Below, piece by piece: positions 3,510 to 13,348 of a stretch of 23,907 bases of DNA. The notes under the pieces are model-generated. The model was not told the origin of the DNA, searched no databases, and was given only the letters and a program-made list of their open reading frames with translations. Origin of the DNA: a virus (lineage: Duplodnaviria > Heunggongvirae > Uroviricota > Caudoviricetes); the IMG/VR virus record IMGVR_UViG_2711768040_000013; one strand, given 5' to 3'. The position numbers and the translations under genes are program-made. Every line of letters begins with the position of its first letter. The first letter of the stretch is position 1.

Positions 3510-5775
3510 AGCCTCCGGGCATTTTGTCCCTCCGTCAGCATTTGCCGCAGGCACCGGTAAGACGTTTACCGGTGCTTATGCATGGAACGCGCCACGCGAG
3601 GCCGTCGGGCGCGAAAGACCCCTTACACGTGACGAGATGCGTCAGGTGCAAGGTGTTTTATCCACGATTAACCGCCTGCCTTACTTTTTGCGCTCGCTGT
3701 TTACTTCACGCTATGACTACATCCGGCGCAATAAAAGCCCGGTGCACGGGTTTTATTTCCTCACATCCACTTTTCAGCGTCGTTTATGGCCGCGCATTGA
3801 GCGCGTGAATCAGCGCCATGAAATGAACACCGACGCGTCGTTGCTGTTTCTGGCAGAGCGCGACCATTATGCGCGCCTGCCGGGGATGAATGACAAGGAG
3901 CTGAAAAAGTTTGCCGCCCGTATCTCATCACAGCTTTTCATGATGTATGAGGAACTCTGCGATGCCTGGGTGGATGCGCATGGCGAGAAAGAATCGCTGT
4001 TTACGGATGAGGCGCAGGCTCACCTCTATGGTCATGTTGCTGGCGCTGCACGTGCTTTCAATATTTCCCCTCTCTACTGGAAAAAATACCGTAAAGGACA
4101 GATGACCACGAGGCAGGCATATTCTGCCATTGCCCGCCTGTTTAACGATGAGTGGTGGACTCATCAGCTTAAAGGCCAGCGTATGCGCTGGCATGAGGCG
4201 TTACTGATTGCTGTCGGGGAGGTCAATAAAGACCGTTCTCCTTATGCCAGTAAACATGCCATTCGTGATGTGCGTGCGCGCCGCCAGGCAAATCTGGAGT
4301 TTCTTAAATCGTGTGACCTTGAGAACAGGGAAACCGGCGAGCGCATCGACCTTATCAGTAAGGTGATGGGCAGTATTTCTAATCCTGAAATTCGCCGGAT
4401 GGAGCTGATGAACACCATTGCCGGTATTGAGCGTTACGCCGCTGCAGAGGGTGACGTGGGGATGTTTATCACGCTGACCGCGCCGTCAAAGTATCACCCG
4501 ACACGTCAGGTCGGAAAAGGCGAAAGTAAAACCGTGCAGCTTAATCACGGCTGGAACGATGAGGCATTTAATCCAAAGGATGCGCAGCGTTATCTCTGCC
4601 GTATCTGGAGCCTGATGCGCACGGCATTCAAGGATAATGATTTACAGGTCTACGGTTTGCGTGTCGTCGAGCCACACCACGACGGAACGCCGCACTGGCA
4701 TATGATGCTTTTTTGTAATCCACGCCAGCGTAACCAGATTATTGAAATCATGCGTCGCTACGCGCTCAAAGAGGATGGAGACGAAAGAGGAGCCGCGCGA
4801 AACCGTTTTCAGGCAAAACATCTTAACCGGGGCGGTGCTGCGGGGTATATCGCGAAATACATCTCAAAAAATATCGACGGCTATGCACTGGATGGTCAGC
4901 TCGATAATGATACCGGCAGACCGCTGAAAGATACTGCCGCGGCTGTTACCGCATGGGCGTCAACGTGGCGCATCCCGCAATTTAAAACGGTTGGTCTGCC
5001 GACAATGGGGGCTTACCGTGAACTACGCAAATTGCCTCGCGGCGTCAGCATTGCTGATGAGTTTGACGAGCGCGTCGAGGCTGCACGCGCCGCTGCAGAC
5101 AGTGGTGATTTTGCGTTGTATATCAGCGCGCAGGGCGGGGCAAATGTCCCGCGCGATTGTCAGACTGTCAGGGTCGCCCGTAGCCCGTCGGATGACGTTA
5201 ACGAGTACGAGGAAGAAGTCGAGAGAGTGGTCGGCATTTACGCGCCGCATCTCGGCGCGCGTCATATTCATATCACCAGAACCACGGACTGGCGCATTGT
5301 GCCGAAAGTGCCGGTCGTTGAGCCTTTGACTTTAAAAAGCGGCATCGCCGCGCCTCGGAGTCCTGTCAATAACTGTGGAAAGCTCACCGGTGGTGATACT
5401 TCGTTACCGGCTCCCACACCTTCTGAACACGCCGCAGCAGTGCTTAATCTGGTTGATGACGGTGTTATCGAATGGAATGACCCGGAGGTCGTGAGGGCGC
5501 TCAGGGGCGCATTAAAATACGGGCTGAGAACACCAAATCGTCAGCAGAGAAACGGAAGCCCGTTAAAACCACATGAAATTGCACCATCGGCCAGACTGAC
5601 CCGGTCGGAAAGAATGCAAATTACCCGTATCCGCGTTGACCTTGCTCAGAACGGTATCAGGCCGCAGCGATGGGAGCTTGAGGCGCTGGCGCGTGGCGCG
5701 ACCGTAAATTATGACGGGAAACCTTTCACTTATCAGGTCGCTGATGATTGGCCGGGATTTTTGTTACCCATTTGA
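3499..5775 (+). CDS. A: Rolling-circle replication initiator endonuclease (P2 gpA-like)
   Basis: Protein from MAVKASGHFVPPSAFAAGTGK resembles P2 A as recalled; HUH-type metal-binding motif HWHMMLF and tyrosine motif YIAKYISKN present; track start 3457 would add 14 residues and a longer overlap. Confidence 0.88.
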   Translation: MAVKASGHFVPPSAFAAGTGKTFTGAYAWNAPREAVGRERPLTRDEMRQVQGVLSTINRLPYFLRSLFTSRYDYIRRNKSPVHGFYFLTSTFQRRLWPRIERVNQRHEMNTDASLLFLAERDHYARLPGMNDKELKKFAARISSQLFMMYEELCDAWVDAHGEKESLFTDEAQAHLYGHVAGAARAFNISPLYWKKYRKGQMTTRQAYSAIARLFNDEWWTHQLKGQRMRWHEALLIAVGEVNKDRSPYASKHAIRDVRARRQANLEFLKSCDLENRETGERIDLISKVMGSISNPEIRRMELMNTIAGIERYAAAEGDVGMFITLTAPSKYHPTRQVGKGESKTVQLNHGWNDEAFNPKDAQRYLCRIWSLMRTAFKDNDLQVYGLRVVEPHHDGTPHWHMMLFCNPRQRNQIIEIMRRYALKEDGDERGAARNRFQAKHLNRGGAAGYIAKYISKNIDGYALDGQLDNDTGRPLKDTAAAVTAWASTWRIPQFKTVGLPTMGAYRELRKLPRGVSIADEFDERVEAARAAADSGDFALYISAQGGANVPRDCQTVRVARSPSDDVNEYEEEVERVVGIYAPHLGARHIHITRTTDWRIVPKVPVVEPLTLKSGIAAPRSPVNNCGKLTGGDTSLPAPTPSEHAAAVLNLVDDGVIEWNDPEVVRALRGALKYGLRTPNRQQRNGSPLKPHEIAPSARLTRSERMQITRIRVDLAQNGIRPQRWELEALARGATVNYDGKPFTYQVADDWPGFLLPI

Positions 5776-6035
5776 GTAAAAATACAGCGTGATTTTATAT
5801 GTCTTTGAATGGATTATGCGAAGCACCTCTAAGGTAGATGAGGAGCAATAGCGTGTTGAATCAGAAGGCTAAATTGTATTGAATCGTTAGCATGTAATTG
5901 AAGGCAGCTATTTGATTCGAGTCATAAAAGAGCATCTATTTCGGTTAATAAAACCATTGCGAGTGACTTTATGTCGAAGCATAATTCATCTCGAGCGAAG
6001 TCTTGCTAGTCTTTCATCGGATTGATGACGGGCGC

Positions 6036-6066
6036 AAAAAAACCACCCTGGCAGGTGGTTTTTTTG
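6036..6066. terminator. Bidirectional rho-independent terminator
   Basis: AAAAAAACCACC-CTGGCA-GGTGGTTTTTTT: perfect GC-containing stem flanked by A-tract and T-tract; about 260 bp after the gene A stop. Confidence 0.75.
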
Positions 6067-6077
6067 TTTGAAGCATA

Positions 6078-6191
6078 CTAAAGAAAAATACTTACATGGA
6101 TATTACTGACGTTTACTGACAAACCACTCGGACTACCATATGGATAGCCAAAGAGGGCCAGAACGAGAATGCAGTAATAGCACTTCTTCAT
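6078..6191 (-). CDS. Small hydrophobic peptide (37 aa, MKKCYYCILVLALFGYPYGSPSGLSVNVSNIHVSIFL), function unknown
   Basis: ATG at 6191 with AGGAGG 4 nt upstream on the minus strand; stop about 12 nt before the bidirectional terminator; below the 60-aa track cut-off; hand translation. Confidence 0.3.
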   Translation of the reverse strand: MKKCYYCILVLALFGYPYGSPSGLSVNVSNIHVSIFL

Positions 6192-6847
6192 ATCGCCTCC
6201 TGTAAGCAGAGGGCAATTTCCGCCGATATATGCGCTTCTAAGGCGGAGTGACTATTGAGCGAAGTCTTGCCCTGAAATAATGCTCTGTTTAAACGCAAAG
6301 TGATCTGGCATATCACTGAACAGAGAACCTGAACAACACAACATATAGTATGTCGTTGTTTCTGGTTGCATTTTATGTTGTGTAATACTGGTTTTGCATC
6401 AAGGATGTTTGAGCTTTTTTTGATATAGCTCAAAGTAAAAAGCAGAGACTACGGATGATAAGGTCTTGAAAGCAATGTAAATTTTTTAAAGTTGTGAGTG
6501 GCTAGAAATGCACAGTTTCAATATGGCGGATTTAAACAAGTAATTAAAAATAGCGCCATAAATTCCAATAAAATCATTATGTTGCGTTTTCTGTGGAAAC
6601 TGCGGTGACTCTGAAATTTTCTTTTAGTGTCGCTGAGGTTTAACAACTCGCTGCGCAAGTAGTTAGTGTTTTTTTAACTCAATATCCTGATTTATAAGGT
6701 TTTTTATAAATCGTTGGCTGATTGCGCGTATTCATCTCGTGTTATCAGCAAAGATAAGCGCTATATGCAAAACTGAATGCATATATGATGTCGAAAATGT
6801 TATGGGAAAACGTGGATTAGTGTTATAGTAATGGCTGAAAAACAGCC

Positions 6848-6876
6848 TTGACATAAAATAACAACTGTGATATGGC
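6848..6876 (+). promoter_or_regulatory. Candidate sigma70 promoter for the peptidase gene (perfect -35 TTGACA, weak -10 near TATGGC)
   Basis: TTGACA at 6848-6853 with a poor -10 about 17 bp downstream, roughly 40 bp before the ATG at 6913. Confidence 0.3.
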
Positions 6877-6912
6877 TGTGCATACTTAACTTTTTTAACG
6901 TAGGAGGCAACC

Positions 6913-7398
6913 ATGAGCTATGCAGCTAAAAAACTGCTTGACCGCTATTGGGATCGCCGACTACCTGTCGATCCGTTTAAGCTTGCTAAAGCGTGGGGTG
7001 CTCGTGTTGAAGCACTTGAGGAATCGGCTTATAACAACGATGGGTTAAGCGGTCTGGCTGTCATCAAAAAGGGTGTCCATAGGATTTATTTTGATTCTAG
7101 TGAACATTCTAATCGTCAACGTTTTACTGTTGCACACGAGTTAGGTCATCATGTGCTGGGGCATACCCAGGACGGAGAGTACCATCGGGATAATGTCGGG
7201 AATTATTCAACAGGTGCTCGTGATTACCGTGAGGTTGAAGCAAACAAGTTTGCTGCTGAGTTGTTAATGCCTGAGTCTGCTATACGTCAATTGGTATCCA
7301 GAGAAGGTATTGATAGCACTTTGAGATTAGCAAGCATCTTTAATGTATCAGAAGCCGCTATGCATTGGCGCTTAAAGAGCTTAGGAATGGCTTATTAA
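6913..7398 (+). CDS. ImmA/IrrE-family (COG2856-like) zinc metallopeptidase, standalone
   Basis: HEXXH motif HELGH at 7135-7149 within FTVAHELGHHVLGH, followed by EVEANKFAAELLMPE as in ImmA/IrrE peptidases; AGGAGG Shine-Dalgarno 5 nt before the ATG; no HTH domain in the protein or in an adjacent ORF. Confidence 0.7.
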   Translation: MSYAAKKLLDRYWDRRLPVDPFKLAKAWGARVEALEESAYNNDGLSGLAVIKKGVHRIYFDSSEHSNRQRFTVAHELGHHVLGHTQDGEYHRDNVGNYSTGARDYREVEANKFAAELLMPESAIRQLVSREGIDSTLRLASIFNVSEAAMHWRLKSLGMAY

Positions 7399-7424
7399 TT
7401 AGCCTTTAACTTTTAACCTGTTTA

Positions 7425-7464
7425 AAATCACCTTTACGTTTGTACATGTAAGGGTGATTTTTTT
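7425..7464 (+). terminator. Hairpin plus T7 tract (terminator-like) directly abutting the next start codon
   Basis: AAATCACCTTTAC pairs with GTAAGGGTGATTT (13-bp stem, one U-G wobble), then TTTTTTT 7458-7464; the ATG of the next ORF starts at 7465 and its GGGTGA ribosome-binding site lies in the 3' arm. Confidence 0.55.
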
Positions 7465-8064
7465 ATGGCTGATATTGATTTATCTGGACAGTCCCCAGAG
7501 CAAGGAACCACTCCTAAGGGCGATTTAGATCCTGATATCCTTATAAGGCGAGATCGACGCGATGGTATAGAGCGTAGAAGTATGCGATTAGTGCTCTCTG
7601 CCGTTGTGCTTTGTTTTGCTTGTACATTTCTATGGCAGGGGCTTAACTTTGCTTTGGCTGTTGGAAATGGCTTGCTGGAAGCGAAAAGCAGTATTGCCAC
7701 AGCGATAACACAAAAAGTAGATGCACAAACTTGTGTTTCAGCAGAAAAATGTTCTGCTTTATCTGCGGATCCGAAGATGGCTGATGAGAGGATAACACCA
7801 TCTTCAGACACTAATAAAGTTAGAAAATCTATTTCTGGTTTATCCACCGATTGGTTATCGGCCAGTTCTCTAATAGCTATTGTTGCATTCATCCTTGGTG
7901 TGGGTTTAACTTTGCTTTTGACTCTTCTTAAATCAGCATTTCAACACCCGACAGATAAAGACTTTAGAACAAAGTCGACATCTAATACTATTGAGTTGGC
8001 CACGCCAATCAGTGAATTAATAATTGGTGTTCTGAATATAATTAAAGACAAACTATCTAAGTAA
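7465..8064 (+). CDS. Membrane protein with two predicted transmembrane segments (199 aa), function unknown
   Basis: Hydrophobic stretches LVLSAVVLCFACTFLWQGLNFALAV and LIAIVAFILGVGLTLLLTLL; basic N-terminus (RRDRRDGIERR); start uncertain (internal ATG at 7582 possible). Confidence 0.55.
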   Translation: MADIDLSGQSPEQGTTPKGDLDPDILIRRDRRDGIERRSMRLVLSAVVLCFACTFLWQGLNFALAVGNGLLEAKSSIATAITQKVDAQTCVSAEKCSALSADPKMADERITPSSDTNKVRKSISGLSTDWLSASSLIAIVAFILGVGLTLLLTLLKSAFQHPTDKDFRTKSTSNTIELATPISELIIGVLNIIKDKLSK

Positions 8065-8106
8065 AGCATTAGTTGTGATTTTTTATTGGTTTTAGTGATA
8101 ATACAT

Positions 8107-8140
8107 CTCCAGTACTTATTGCTACTGGAGAGTATTTTTA
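8107..8140 (+). terminator. Hairpin CTCCAGTA-N8-TACTGGAG plus T-rich tail between convergent genes
   Basis: Perfect 8-bp inverted repeat 8107-8114 / 8123-8130 followed by AGTATTTTTA. Confidence 0.45.
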
Positions 8141-8146
8141 GTCGTT

Positions 8147-9088
8147 TTATATTTTTAATGTTAGTGAATGATATTCACGAGAGTTCACGTTCGATGTGAT
8201 GTAATCGGGGGCGTTAACACCAAGAATCGCAACGAGCAATCGGCAAATTAAAGCCTGCATTTGTTGTAATATGTCATCTCCATATTGATAATTGTTAATA
8301 GTGGTAAAGCCAAGTGGTTGACCATGAAACATAGCTTCATGAAAGTTTTCATTGCGGATGTTTGTAATGTTTTTTTTGCCTGTAACCCATGATGGTCGTG
8401 GTATGCCATAAGTTTTGCAGATCCACTTCAAGCGCCTGGAGTGATTTAGAGTCTTTTCTGTACACTTGTTCTTTTCTGCCCATGTTAAAGCAAAGCAACT
8501 ATCCAGTGCCATATAAAGATACTGGAATTTTTCGAAGCTAAGGTATTGTGGGTTTTGGGATAAAAATAGTGCATGCACTATTGCTGCTATATTTATTGGT
8601 GCGTGTTTGGTTTTTTTCTCGCTAGACATGTATTTGAGTGCTAATTCTATAACCTCTTTTTCAGAGCACTTGACCAGAATAAAGTCAGTTAATTTGCTGG
8701 GTTTTATTGGGGTTGCGTCTAAAAAACCGGCATCAGTAGTTGTTAATCTTATCCCTTTGAAAAAAGACAGACACCACACAGCAAAATTGAGAGTTTCTAG
8801 TGAAGATGTATTTTTTAATTTTAGTGAGTGTGTTTTGGGTAAGCCAAATACTCGTTGGCTAAAAGGCATTGTGGATATGCCTCCATTGAGGTTATATACT
8901 TCTTGGTTTCCTGGGTATATCCAACCGTTAATAACATTTCTGTGATTGTTTATAAGATTTGTTTTTTCCGCTAGACCGGGTAAAGTAAGTAAAGAAAAAT
9001 CATCAGTTTCAACGTTAACCTCTACTGGATAGTATCCAAACTCAGCTTCAATATCATTGGATTGCTGTTCGTCAACTTTACCTTGCAT
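8147..9088 (-). CDS. Hypothetical 313-aa protein with C-terminal HEPN-like RNxxxH motif (candidate abortive-infection RNase)
   Basis: Long ORF in visibly AT-rich DNA; GGAG Shine-Dalgarno 6 nt before the ATG at 9088; R245-N-E-N-F-H250 encoded at 8339-8356 fits the Rx4-6H HEPN signature; no P-loop; otherwise not recognised. Confidence 0.6.
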   Translation of the reverse strand: MQGKVDEQQSNDIEAEFGYYPVEVNVETDDFSLLTLPGLAEKTNLINNHRNVINGWIYPGNQEVYNLNGGISTMPFSQRVFGLPKTHSLKLKNTSSLETLNFAVWCLSFFKGIRLTTTDAGFLDATPIKPSKLTDFILVKCSEKEVIELALKYMSSEKKTKHAPINIAAIVHALFLSQNPQYLSFEKFQYLYMALDSCFALTWAEKNKCTEKTLNHSRRLKWICKTYGIPRPSWVTGKKNITNIRNENFHEAMFHGQPLGFTTINNYQYGDDILQQMQALICRLLVAILGVNAPDYITSNVNSREYHSLTLKI

Positions 9089-9202
9089 ACATTGCTCCGG
9101 TCAAAAATAGGCTCGATAATTCTCGTAAGCCTATCATGTTCGCAAAGTATCCATACCTGTGGATTTTGTAAATTTAAGTTGATTTGTCATTAAATAAGCC
9201 GT

Positions 9203-9231
9203 GCATGCAACAAGTGAATGTTTTTGCATGC
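9203..9231. promoter_or_regulatory. Inverted repeat GCATGCAA-N13-TTGCATGC upstream of the 313-aa gene
   Basis: Read directly; about 115 bp upstream of the 313-aa gene start, in its likely promoter region. Confidence 0.3.
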
Positions 9232-9325
9232 GTCGGGGATGCCCGTTCCGGCTGCTTGCGGTCAGAGCTGGTGCGGATCCATAGTATCTAAGCAACTGCA
9301 TTAAAACCGCCCTATGAAGCGGGCG

Positions 9326-9344
9326 GGCGAGGCGGGGAAAGCAC
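9326..9344. other. cos site: 19-nt P2-type cohesive-end sequence GGCGAGGCGGGGAAAGCAC
   Basis: Exact match to the P2 cohesive end as I recall it, in the expected position downstream of Q, inside a GC-rich non-coding stretch. Confidence 0.7.
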
Positions 9345-9486
9345 TGCGCGCTGGCGGTGGTGCTGATTTTATTTTTTCAGCGTCTGAGCGCGTCGTGACG
9401 GCGCTTAGTCTGCCCGTTGAGGCGTTGGTGTGTCTGCGGGGTGTTTTGTGCGGTGGTGAGCGTGTGAGGGCGTGATGACGAGGTGT

Positions 9487-9510
9487 AAAAAAGCCGCCCG
9501 CAGGCGGCGA
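9487..9510 (-). terminator. Rho-independent terminator after portal gene Q (minus strand)
   Basis: On the minus strand GCCGCC-TGCG-GGCGGC followed by TTTTTT, immediately 3' of the Q stop. Confidence 0.6.
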
Positions 9511-9513
9511 TGT

Positions 9514-10548
9514 TCAGCCGTTGTCAGTGTCCAGTGAGTAGTTTTTAAAGCGGATGACCTCCTGACCGAGCCAGCCGTTTATCTCGCGGATCCTGTCCTG
9601 TAACGGGATAAGCTCATTGCGGACAAAGACCTTTGCCACTTTCTCAATATCTCCCAGTGACCCGACGTTCTCCGGCTTGCCGCCCATCAACTGAAAGGGG
9701 ATGCGGTGTGCGTCCAGCAGGTCTGCGGCGCTGGCTTTTTTGATATTAAAAAAATCGTCCTTCGTCGCCACTTCACTGAGCGGGATAATTTTAATGCCGT
9801 CGGCTTTCCCTTGCGGGGCATAGAGAAACAGATTTTTAAAGTTGTTGCGGCCTTTCGACTTCACCATGTTTTCGCGGAGCATTTCGATATCGTTGCGATC
9901 CTGCACGGCATCGGTGACGTACATGATGTATCCGGCATGTGCGCCGTTTTCGTAATACTTGCGGCGGAACAGCGTGGCCGACTCATTCAGCCAGGCAGAG
10001 TTAAGGGCGCTGAGATATTCCGGCAGGCCGTACAGCTCCTGATTAATATCCGGCTCCAGCAGGTGAAACACGGAGCCGGGCGCGAAAGGTGTCGGCTCAT
10101 GGAAGGACGGCACCCACCAGTAAACATCCTCTTCCACGCCACGGCGGGTATATTTTGCCGGTGAGGTTTCCAGTCTGATGACCTTACCGGTGGTGCTGTA
10201 ACGCTTTTCCAGAAACGCATTACCGAACACCAGAAAATCCAGCACAAAGCGGCTGAAATCCTGCTGAGAAAGCCACGGGTGCGGGATAAACGTTGAAGCC
10301 AGAATATTGCGTTTGACGTAAATCGGTGAGCTGTGATGCACGGCAGCACGCAGGCTTTTTGCCAGACCGGTAAAGCTGACCGGTGGCTCATACCATCTGC
10401 CGTTACTGATGCACTCGACGTAATCCAGAATGTCACGGCGGTCGAGTACCGGCACCGGCTCACCAAAGGTGAATGCCTCCATTTTCGGGGCGCTGGCGGT
10501 CATTTTTTTTGCCGCAGGTTGCGGTGTTTTCCCTTTTTTCTTGCTCAT
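9514..10548 (-). CDS. Q: Portal protein (P2 gpQ-like)
   Basis: 344 aa, same length as P2 Q; position and orientation next to terminase as in P2. Confidence 0.88.
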   Translation of the reverse strand: MSKKKGKTPQPAAKKMTASAPKMEAFTFGEPVPVLDRRDILDYVECISNGRWYEPPVSFTGLAKSLRAAVHHSSPIYVKRNILASTFIPHPWLSQQDFSRFVLDFLVFGNAFLEKRYSTTGKVIRLETSPAKYTRRGVEEDVYWWVPSFHEPTPFAPGSVFHLLEPDINQELYGLPEYLSALNSAWLNESATLFRRKYYENGAHAGYIMYVTDAVQDRNDIEMLRENMVKSKGRNNFKNLFLYAPQGKADGIKIIPLSEVATKDDFFNIKKASAADLLDAHRIPFQLMGGKPENVGSLGDIEKVAKVFVRNELIPLQDRIREINGWLGQEVIRFKNYSLDTDNG

Positions 10549-12320
10549 CAGTAAAACTCCAGAATGGTGGATGTCAGCGGGGTGCTGATACCGGCGGTGA
10601 GTGGCTCATTTAACAGGGCGTGCATGGTCGCCCAGGCGAGGTCGGCGTGGCTGGCTTCCTCGCTGCGGCTGGCCTCATAGGTGGCACTGCGTCCGCTGCT
10701 GGTCATGGTCTTGCGGATAGCCATAAACGAGCTGGTGATGTCGGTGGCGCTGACGTCGTATTCCAGACAGCCACGGCGGATGACGTCTTTTGCCTTGAGC
10801 ACCATTGCGGTTTTCATTTCCGGCGTGTAGCGGATGTCGCGCGCGGCGGGATAGAACGAGCGCACGAGCTGGAACACGCCGACACCGAGGCCGGTGGCAT
10901 CAATACCGATGTATTCGACGTTGTATTTTTCGGTGAGTTTGCGGATGGATTCCGCCTGAGTGGCAAAGTCCATGCCTTTCCACTGGTGACGCTCAAGTAT
11001 TCTGAATTTGCCACCGGCCACCACCGGCGGTGCCAGCACCACGCATCCGGCACTGTCGCCACGGTGTGACGGGTCGTAACCAATCCAGACCGGGCGGGAG
11101 CCGAACGGATTCGCGGCAAACGGCGCATAGTCTTCCCATTCTTCCAGCGTGTCGACCATGCAGCGTTGCAGCTCCTCGAACGGGAATACCGACGCCTTGT
11201 CGTCAACAAATTCACACATGAACAGGTTTTTAAAATCGTCGGCGCTGTTTTCACGTTTGAGCTGCTCAATGTCGAACAGCGTGCAGCCACCTTTCAGGGC
11301 GTCCTCAATGGTGACAATCTGCCGCCACTGGCCGTCCGCACAGAGAAGCCCACCGGCAAGGGCGTTATGACTGACGTCGATTTCCACGCGTTCGGCGGCG
11401 CTGGCGCGTCCCCGGTTGAACAGTTCACCTGACCAGAACGGGTAGGCGTCGTGCGCCAGCGTGGACGGGGTGGAGAAATAGGTCGAACGCAGGTGACTCT
11501 GTGAGGCCATACCTGATGCCACCTTACGCAGTACCTGAAAATTCGGGATCCAGAAAATCTCGTCGACGTACAGGTCGCCGTTATGGCTCTGTGCGGTGTT
11601 GGAGTTGGTGCCGAGAAAAATCAGTTTTGCGCCGTTATTGCCCAGGACAATCGGGTCACCGGTCAGGTCAACGTCAACCAGCCGGGCAAAGGCGATGATG
11701 TATTCACGGAACACATACGCCTGCGTTTTACTGGCCGACAGAAAAATCTGGTTATGGCCGGTTTTCAGGGCGCGCAGCAGCGCCTCGCGGGAAAAATAAA
11801 ACGTTGCGCCAATCTGGCGGGATTTCAGGATATCGCGGATGCGGTGCTCAAGCCCGGCGCGATACCAGTGCAACTGATAGTCGAAAGACTGCTCAAAGAA
11901 AATCTGCTCCAGCTTTTCGATGGCCTCGTCACTGAAAAAATTCTTTTTCGGTTTGCGACGCCCGCCTTTGTTGCGGTTAGCGAAGTTCGGATTAAGGTCT
12001 GCCTCGTTGCCGGTCTGACTGTAGCGGTTGACCCGTGCCAGTCGTTCAATCTGGCGTCCCAGCAGGTCAATTTCCTTGAAGTCACCGCCGGTTTTCTGCG
12101 GTTTGATGATGAGCTGGGTCAGCCGCGCTTCCAGACTCATTTCGACACGGCTGATGGGGGCAACGCTGTCCCAGCCGTCGCGCTGTTTCCAGCTCTGCAC
12201 CGTCGGGCGTTTCATCTGCAACATGGCGGCAATCTGCGGCACGGAAAACCCCTGCCAGTACAGCAGCGCCGCCTGACGACGCGGGTCGTGTAAAAGAGTG
12301 GTGTCTGTGGTGATGGTCAT
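10548..12320 (-). CDS. P: Terminase large (ATPase) subunit (P2 gpP-like)
   Basis: 590 aa from MTITTDTT (GAGG Shine-Dalgarno upstream of ATG 12320), same length as P2 P; track start 12350 adds 10 residues. Confidence 0.88.
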   Translation of the reverse strand: MTITTDTTLLHDPRRQAALLYWQGFSVPQIAAMLQMKRPTVQSWKQRDGWDSVAPISRVEMSLEARLTQLIIKPQKTGGDFKEIDLLGRQIERLARVNRYSQTGNEADLNPNFANRNKGGRRKPKKNFFSDEAIEKLEQIFFEQSFDYQLHWYRAGLEHRIRDILKSRQIGATFYFSREALLRALKTGHNQIFLSASKTQAYVFREYIIAFARLVDVDLTGDPIVLGNNGAKLIFLGTNSNTAQSHNGDLYVDEIFWIPNFQVLRKVASGMASQSHLRSTYFSTPSTLAHDAYPFWSGELFNRGRASAAERVEIDVSHNALAGGLLCADGQWRQIVTIEDALKGGCTLFDIEQLKRENSADDFKNLFMCEFVDDKASVFPFEELQRCMVDTLEEWEDYAPFAANPFGSRPVWIGYDPSHRGDSAGCVVLAPPVVAGGKFRILERHQWKGMDFATQAESIRKLTEKYNVEYIGIDATGLGVGVFQLVRSFYPAARDIRYTPEMKTAMVLKAKDVIRRGCLEYDVSATDITSSFMAIRKTMTSSGRSATYEASRSEEASHADLAWATMHALLNEPLTAGISTPLTSTILEFY

Positions 12321-12493
12321 GAATACCTCGCCGTGATGAATACACGGCAAGGCTACTGAGTCGCGTCCCGCGATTCGCTAAGGTGCTGTTGTGTCAGTGA
12401 TAAGCCATCCGGGACTGATGGCGGAGGATGCGCATCGTCGGGAAACTGATGCCGACATGTGACTCCTCTAATCACTATTCAGGACTCCTGACA
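12321..12493. promoter_or_regulatory. Divergent late-promoter region between P and O (includes palindrome CCGTG-N7-CACGG at 12331-12347)
   Basis: 173-bp intergenic gap between divergently transcribed late operons, as in P2; I could not identify a specific activator-binding element by eye. Confidence 0.4.
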
Positions 12494-13348
12494 ATGGCAA
12501 AAAAAGTCTCAAAATTCTTTCGTATCGGCGTTGAAGGTGACACCTGTGACGGGCGTGTCATCAGTGCGCAGGATATTCAGGAAATGGCCGAAACCTTTGA
12601 CCCGCGTGTCTATGGTTGCCGTATTAACCTGGAACATCTGCGCGGCATCCTGCCTGACGGTATTTTTAAGCGTTATGGCGATGTGGCCGAACTGAAGGCC
12701 GAAAAGATTGACGATGATTCGGCGCTGAAAGGCAAATGGGCGCTGTTTGCGAAAATCACCCCGACCGATGACCTTATCGCGATGAACAAGGCCGCGCAGA
12801 AGGTCTACACCTCAATGGAAATTCAGCCGAACTTTGCCAACACCGGCAAATGTTATCTGGTGGGTCTGGCCGTCACCGATGACCCGGCAAGCCTCGGCAC
12901 GGAATACCTGGAATTCTGCCGCACGGCAAAACACAACCCCCTGAACCGCTTCAAATTAAGCCCTGAAAACCTGATTTCAGTGGCAACGCCTGTTGAGCTG
13001 GAATTTGAAGACCTGCCTGAAACCGTGTTCACCGCCCTGACCGAAAAGGTGAAGTCCATTTTTGGCCGCAAACAGGCCAGCGATGACGCCCGTCTGAATG
13101 ACGTGCATGAAGCGGTGACCGCTGTTGCTGAACATGTGCAGGAAAAACTGAGCGCCACTGAGCAGCGCCTCGCTGAGATGGAAACCGCCTTTTCCGCACT
13201 TAAGCAGGAGGTGACTGACAGGGCGGATGAAACCAGCCAGGCATTCAGCCGCCTGAAAAACAGTCTCGACAACACCGAAAGTCTGACCCAGCAGCGCCGC
13301 AGCAAGGCCACCGGCGGTGGCGGTGACGCCCTGATGACGAACTGCTGA
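12494..13348 (+). CDS. O: Capsid scaffolding protein (P2 gpO-like)
   Basis: 284 aa from MAKKVSKFFRIGVEGDTCDGRV, resembling P2 O as recalled; track ORF begins 22 codons upstream. Confidence 0.88.
   Translation: MAKKVSKFFRIGVEGDTCDGRVISAQDIQEMAETFDPRVYGCRINLEHLRGILPDGIFKRYGDVAELKAEKIDDDSALKGKWALFAKITPTDDLIAMNKAAQKVYTSMEIQPNFANTGKCYLVGLAVTDDPASLGTEYLEFCRTAKHNPLNRFKLSPENLISVATPVELEFEDLPETVFTALTEKVKSIFGRKQASDDARLNDVHEAVTAVAEHVQEKLSATEQRLAEMETAFSALKQEVTDRADETSQAFSRLKNSLDNTESLTQQRRSKATGGGGDALMTNC

Follow-up and report, generated by a model that had tools for sequence, protein, structure and literature searches.

ORF313, a candidate HEPN-type anti-phage protein in the cargo hotspot of a P2-like prophage

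How single-protein HEPN immune effectors sense their cues is only now becoming clear, and two such proteins, HepS and ApeA, are the closest described systems to the gene considered here. HepS, from the Gifsy-1 prophage of Salmonella, is cued by a tail tip protein; its homologues are shorter than 250 amino acids (aa), carry the motif R100-H105 and have no extra domain (Sargen et al., Nature 2026, PMC13043305). ApeA is an all-helical protein of about 580 aa, built from N-terminal, Mid and split HEPN domains and assembled into decamers or dodecamers. Its cue is deoxydinucleotides. The activating ligand is bound in a conserved pocket that lies between the N-terminal domain and the HEPN domain, and ApeA cuts tRNAs at the anticodon (Gao et al. 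2020; Juozapaitis et al. 2026 preprint, 10.64898/2026.01.26.701840). ApeA-type genes are found in the hotspots of P2-like prophages too, as shown by a HEPN_Apea entry in the table of Rousset 2022. Here we describe ORF313, a 313-aa open reading frame (ORF) in a stretch of 23,907 nucleotides (nt) of Caudoviricetes DNA (IMG/VR record IMGVR_UViG_2711768040_000013), which we refer to as the window. We think that, on balance, ORF313 is a self-contained HEPN-type RNA-cutting effector that acts against phages by abortive infection. Four lines of evidence bear on this: a conserved motif, a HEPN-like predicted fold, residence in a defence hotspot and in defence islands, and the autonomy of the gene.

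Motif conservation and predicted fold

An earlier note, made from the letters of the window alone, had proposed an AT-rich gene for a possible HEPN RNase with an RNENFH (Rx4H) motif and no NTPase motif, and had cautioned that so short a motif may arise by chance. The description of the gene is accurate. The reading frame opens with ATG and has a GC content of 36.8%, against 53% in the neighbouring portal gene; the protein has a single Rx4-6H match, R245-N-E-N-F-H250, and its translation contains no Walker A motif (GxxxxGK[ST]). The caution was also well placed. When ORF313 was shuffled with its composition preserved, Rx4H appeared in 21% of the shuffles and Rx4-6H in 50%, with R[NHD]x3H in 3.2% and RNx3HE in 0.15%, so the motif in this one sequence is, by itself, no evidence.

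It is the family that takes the motif beyond chance, because the motif is near-invariant there. Homologues number 603 in a 90%-clustered collection and 653 as representatives at 50% identity; nearly all are full-length proteins of about 300 aa, and they come from Gamma-, Beta- and Alphaproteobacteria, plus one Bryobacterales metagenome-assembled genome. In an alignment of 79 of these sequences, with identity down to 26%, H250 (79/79), E186, R283, G112 and G260 are invariant, and H216, R219, T86 and H87 nearly so. R245 is present in 78 of the 79 sequences, N246 in 75 and E251 in 74, with aspartate at the last position in four more, giving the consensus R-N-x-x-hydrophobic-H-[ED]-[AG]-x-[FY]-x3-P-L-G-[FY]. 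A conserved Rx4-6H, usually with a polar residue after the arginine, is a mark of the HEPN superfamily, and it is retained nearly throughout the alignment. Judged by the conservation of R245, N246, H250 and E251 over the 79 sequences, the motif is under strong purifying selection. The most conserved single block of the family lies N-terminal to the motif, at residues 81-130, and the conserved central residues of ORF313 are R79, T86, H87, G112, R114, D124 and D135.

An AlphaFold2 model of ORF313, made from 36 sequences and no templates, has a mean predicted local distance difference test (pLDDT) score of 83 and a predicted template modelling (pTM) score of 0.84, with confidence falling to 50-64 at residues 241-270. 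The model has two domains, a beta-rich alpha/beta domain at the N-terminus and an all-helical, HEPN-like domain at the C-terminus (Table 1). The figures tabulated with the structure are 7.7 for Csm6, 7.2 for the HEPN-domain protein 4nqf, 7.1 for the sacsin HEPN domain, 6.7 for AbiA, 6.6 for HepT, and 6.5 for both YutE and AF0298. For the N-terminal domain there was no significant fold match.

The sequence-level ties of the family to HEPN proteins are, in our judgement, only hints. The family consensus matches PADLOC CARF_HEPN models at E values of 0.002-0.009, the matched stretch ending at the motif, and across the 79 members there are two single matches below threshold, one to HEPN_RiboL-PSP (E 0.074) and one to HEPN_Apea (E 0.15). 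Scans with Pfam, NCBIfam and PADLOC gave no significant family for the ORF313 protein, for sets of 36 and 79 homologues or for the consensus of the family, and the only PHROGs matches were to phrog_5937, to which ORF313 itself belongs, and phrog_34836, both of unassigned function. Sequence searches of the PDB, run with the single sequence and with two profiles, returned no HEPN chain. Weak PDB profile matches, at about residues 243-283 and 3-57 of ORF313, link the family to the N-terminus of the E. coli ribonucleotide reductase R2 protein NrdB (E 0.01) and, at E values of 0.0065-0.7, to RyR-domain proteins of bacteria; both were judged to be chance or uninterpretable.

The HEPN RNase proposed in the earlier note thus stands in part. 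The conservation of the motif in the family and the HEPN-like predicted fold speak for it, whereas two results weigh against it: ORF313 has no significant match to a curated HEPN profile in Pfam, NCBIfam or PADLOC, and a Foldseek search of the PDB, one of the checks the note had called for, gave a best E value of 0.4 and no HEPN entry among its matches. We regard the proposal as partly supported; it has survived the checks run and is still a prediction. In a different explanation, HEPN-type RNA cutting is not what the C-terminal domain does, and the conserved R/N/H/E residues, together with the strongly conserved central block (R79, T86-H87, R114, D124, D135), serve instead in binding a ligand or nucleic acid, in some other hydrolytic chemistry, or in an anti-defence or regulatory role on behalf of the phage. 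We consider this explanation doubtful, and it is the strongest of the alternatives to a HEPN-type defence effector.

The P2 cargo hotspot and the contexts of homologues

The window is a P2-like prophage. The ORF313 gene is 100% identical to a copy in E. coli WP3-S18-ESBL-09, where the prophage adjoins cpxP and runs in the order integrase, C, cox and gpA; three cargo genes; then portal (gpQ), terminase (gpP), capsid, lysis and tail genes. ORF313 sits in the interval gpA-cos-gpQ, the tin/old locus. At the edge of the cargo hotspot the plus strand reads GGCGAGGCGGGGAAAGCAC, which we take to be the P2 cos sequence. With cos at this position, the start codon of ORF313 is 237 bp from it, and the linear phage records that end there (Table 1) put ORF313 at one end of the packaged genome, as the final gene there.

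The gpA-gpQ interval of P2-like prophages has been shown experimentally to be a hotspot of anti-phage systems (Rousset 2022). Table S5 of that study carries the ORF313 product (WP_001517496) and its two neighbours as 'hypothetical + hypothetical + Peptidase_M78', with no sign of WP_001517496 having been tested, and the RefSeq label of WP_001517496.1 is likewise 'hypothetical protein'. We found no paper that names WP_001517496 or ORF313 of P2-EC67, and no experimental report on the protein or its motifs. WP_001517496 was not found in the part of the DefensePredictor supplement that was searched; a 311-aa DefensePredictor protein, WP_097419291, is unrelated to ORF313.

Homologues elsewhere also keep company with defence and mobility genes. 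In the P. aeruginosa loci L047-L050, Gabija lies 3 kb downstream of the homologue. Other homologues are cargo of integrative and conjugative elements (ICEs), lie between AlpA and Trb conjugation genes, or have as neighbour a resolvase, a KAP NTPase, a HEPN gene of AbiU2-like type or a gene resembling a restriction endonuclease, and some are carried on conjugative plasmids. Residence in validated hotspots and in defence islands on mobile elements, a generic property of defence genes, is therefore a property of ORF313 as well.

Two of these settings have features of their own. The Gabija-like pair of L047-L050 (at 9984-12960 in those loci) consists of an OLD-like TOPRIM ATPase and a UvrD helicase, and its island also holds DUF932 and ParB_N genes. 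In sphingomonads (L026, L027 and L032; about 7148-8870), two genes come after the homologue on its own strand, a conserved one of 199 aa and one of about 371 aa with a weak AbiU2-type HEPN match (E 4e-4), possibly a lineage-specific multi-gene arrangement.

Such mobility could be read in another way. ORF313 might be a HEPN RNase that was selected as an element-stabilising toxin or addiction module, or for a task in the phage life cycle such as host shut-off or RNA processing; the presence of the gene on many mobile elements (prophages, ICEs and plasmids), and in some plaque-forming P2-like phages, would fit either role. We think this unlikely. Of 50,697 phage records, only 7 have the gene; most P2-like phages are without it, so it does not serve the life cycle, and it lies, moreover, in a documented defence hotspot. 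Addiction would call for an antitoxin, and no candidate adjoins ORF313: neither an MNT gene nor a conserved small ORF was found in 39 genome loci, positions 5700-9520 of the window hold no tandem-repeat RNA array, and no Rfam family reached its gathering score. A 55-aa ORF upstream of the gene is frame-broken or truncated in relatives.

Autonomy and control of the gene

As the earlier note had it, ORF313 has its own Shine-Dalgarno sequence, lies downstream of an inverted repeat and converges with two cargo genes; all of these features were recovered (Table 1). The P2-EC67 homologue also has an annotated ribosome-binding site. About 240 bp from cos to the ATG, including the inverted repeat, in which the palindrome GCATGC is present two or three times, are conserved together with the gene in loci of E. 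coli, P2-EC67, Enterobacter and Salmonella. In the same four loci a leader hairpin is kept at the same position despite sequence changes, four being too few for an analysis of covariation, and the hairpin with its T-run may serve as an attenuator or as an insulating terminator. Sigma-70-like sites are no more numerous in the region than expected from shuffles, and the one we list is a candidate only. The inverted repeat, the sigma-70-like site and the leader hairpin of this conserved cos-to-ATG region suggest that ORF313 is a transcription unit under its own, and perhaps tight, control.

The two convergent cargo genes encode an ImmA/IrrE-type metallopeptidase of 161 aa with an HExxH motif (Peptidase_M78, E 4e-21; PADLOC capP, E 1e-30) and a membrane protein of 199 aa (TM199, phrog_8096). 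In complete E. coli genomes, ORF313 was found in 47 and the ImmA-TM199 pair in 47, at an identity of at least 99%, and the genes are adjacent wherever both are listed. Since the copies are so nearly identical, they are one clonal cassette, and say little on functional linkage.

Homologues in other hosts do without these partners. The 186-like prophages of Salmonella have a homologue of 78% identity between the portal gene and DinI/gpA, and no cargo other than this gene, DinI and a 60-aa ORF. The homologue in Yersinia phage vB_YpM_46 adjoins cos, and nothing but a 68-aa ORF and a DUF3850 gene lies between it and gpA; the one in P2-EC67 is paired with ORF73 and ORF226. Across the 39 genome loci, with crude gene calls and all-against-all BLAST, no neighbour family was held in common, except within one ICE lineage.

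The idea that ORF313 works only in a three-gene system, in which the CapP-like metallopeptidase might activate or license the RNase and the membrane protein would take part, draws on the adjacency of the genes in all complete E. coli genomes that appear in both searches, on the entry of all three as one arrangement in Rousset 2022, and on the resemblance of ImmA to CapP, a protease that regulates the cyclic-oligonucleotide-based anti-phage signalling system (CBASS), but we reject it as the principal explanation and hold it to be very improbable, given the clonality of the cassette, the absence of both partners in Salmonella, the Yersinia phage, P2-EC67 and the 39 other loci, the presence of the ImmA module without ORF313 in phage OU784750 and in Rousset's table, and the convergent layout, with a bidirectional terminator and a separate 5' region setting ORF313 apart.

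The ImmA gene and the 199-aa membrane-protein gene may form a separate two-gene hotspot module, as the pair is also listed in the Rousset table without ORF313. No helix-turn-helix repressor gene adjoins the CapP-like gene. Between gpA and the ImmA gene lies an AT-rich stretch of 1.1 kb with no ORF longer than 81 aa, which is present upstream of the ImmA homologue of the P2-like phage OU784750 (87% conserved), a phage without ORF313. It includes a perfect 13-bp hairpin and a sub-threshold RNAI-like Rfam match, and could be non-coding RNA or regulatory DNA of the ImmA module.

Table 1. Features at and around ORF313; positions are those of the window
Feature	Position	Strand	Details
AT-rich stretch	5776-6912		between gpA and the ImmA gene
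RNAI-like Rfam match	6034-6144	minus	sub-threshold, E 0.028
Perfect hairpin	6035-6066		13 bp
ImmA/IrrE-type metallopeptidase gene	6913-7398	plus	161 aa
Membrane-protein gene (TM199)	7465-8064	plus	199 aa
Bidirectional terminator-like hairpin	8106-8131		9 bp; between ORF313 and the convergent 199-aa gene
ORF313 coding sequence	8147-9088	minus	ATG start, 313 aa and stop; member of phrog_5937
C-terminal all-helical HEPN-like domain	8150-8668	minus	about residues 141-313; predicted model
R245-N-E-N-F-H250 codons	8339-8356	minus	candidate HEPN Rx4H catalytic motif; translation, family alignment
N-terminal alpha/beta (beta-rich) domain	8669-9088	minus	about residues 1-140, including the most conserved block of the protein; predicted model
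Shine-Dalgarno GGAG	9095-9098	minus	6 nt upstream of ATG
Leader hairpin and T-run	9101-9135	minus	hairpin 9106-9135, then T-run 9101-9105; terminator- or attenuator-like; directly upstream of the Shine-Dalgarno sequence
ORF of 55 aa	9134-9301		upstream of ORF313
Weak sigma-70-like promoter candidate	9163-9190	minus	ATGACA, 16 nt, CAAAAT; 9/12 matches
Inverted repeat	9203-9231		arms 9203-9213 and 9221-9231, 11 nt, 91% complementary; just upstream of the promoter candidate
cos cohesive-end site	9326-9344		19 nt; edge of the cargo hotspot; linear P2-like phage records stop at 9325 and 9344

Proposed mechanism and comparison with known systems

If ORF313 is a self-contained HEPN effector, its C-terminal helical domain would be a divergent HEPN RNase domain. 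Two subunits would pair and bring R245 and H250, with N246 and E251, together in a composite active site of the kind present in other HEPN enzymes. The N-terminal alpha/beta domain and the conserved linker (about residues 75-136) would pack on the HEPN domain, and most likely keep the nuclease silent until a phage protein or a small molecule is sensed. Once activated, the enzyme would cut host RNA, most plausibly the anticodon loops of tRNA by analogy with HepS, ApeA and PrrC, and translation and phage production would stop. The carrier P2-like phage, for its part, must presumably not trigger ORF313.

A bolder version of this proposal, which we offer tentatively, is that ORF313 represents an unnamed sensor-effector family. 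The novel alpha/beta domain and linker (R79, T86-H87, R114, D124, D135) would provide a highly divergent HEPN domain with a pocket or surface for sensing, an anticodon-type RNase would be switched on by a cue unlike those of HepS and ApeA, and the carrier phage would have evolved not to trigger it.

Were a HEPN defence function to be confirmed, the few single-protein HEPN immune effectors would be joined by a widespread family, which forms about 650 clusters at 50% identity and is carried on prophages, ICEs and plasmids of Alpha-, Beta- and Gammaproteobacteria. A recurrent 'hypothetical protein' of the P2 hotspot, missed by PADLOC 2.0, Pfam and NCBIfam, would gain a function. With sensor and effector in 313 residues, it would offer a compact, partner-free model for how HEPN nucleases are silenced and triggered, and would help to explain how prophages avoid targeting themselves. 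A solo prophage HEPN defence protein, unnamed so far, would probably strike a specialist as plausible rather than surprising.

ORF313 differs from most of the known systems with which it might be grouped. The old and tin genes of P2, which serve to exclude phages, occupy the same gpA-cos-gpQ slot and are expressed from the prophage, but their proteins are unrelated to ORF313, and OLD combines an ABC ATPase with a TOPRIM nuclease, whereas an NTPase motif is absent from ORF313; a 2026 preprint describes OLD as acting as an abortive tRNase. PrrC-type anticodon nucleases are set apart in the same manner, as ORF313 has neither a Walker A motif nor a Pfam NTPase match. Unlike the Csm6/Csx1 CARF-HEPN RNases, it has no CARF domain and no CRISPR context. 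It has no Pfam match to any of the lactococcal HEPN Abi proteins (AbiD/AbiF of Abi_2, AbiJ, AbiU2, AbiV and the C-terminal domain of AbiA) and no reverse-transcriptase domain, and it comes from Proteobacteria rather than Firmicutes.

The toxin-antitoxin systems fit no better. An hhalign profile comparison with E. coli RnlA was negative (probability 0.1), and there is no gene downstream of ORF313 before the terminator, which distinguishes it from RnlA/LsoA. HepT-MntA (type VII) is distinguished by its MNT partner, missing from the 39 loci, the neighbours in the window being the ImmA gene and the membrane-protein gene, and type III (ToxIN-like) systems by their tandem RNA repeats, of which the region around ORF313 has none.

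HepS and ApeA remain the nearest parallels. Compared with HepS, ORF313 is longer at 313 aa, has an extra N-terminal alpha/beta domain of about 140 residues and carries its motif at 245-250, and it resides in a myovirus, P2-like, rather than in a siphovirus, Gifsy-1; no sequence related to ORF313 was detected in the PDB. Compared with ApeA, its 313 aa and beta-rich N-terminal domain make a different architecture; no PADLOC ApeA model matched ORF313, and the Pfam HEPN_Apea profile matched the single family member mentioned above, while UniRef calls one homologue 'Apea-like HEPN'. By analogy, then, we suggest that ORF313 works most like HepS and ApeA, as a member of neither.
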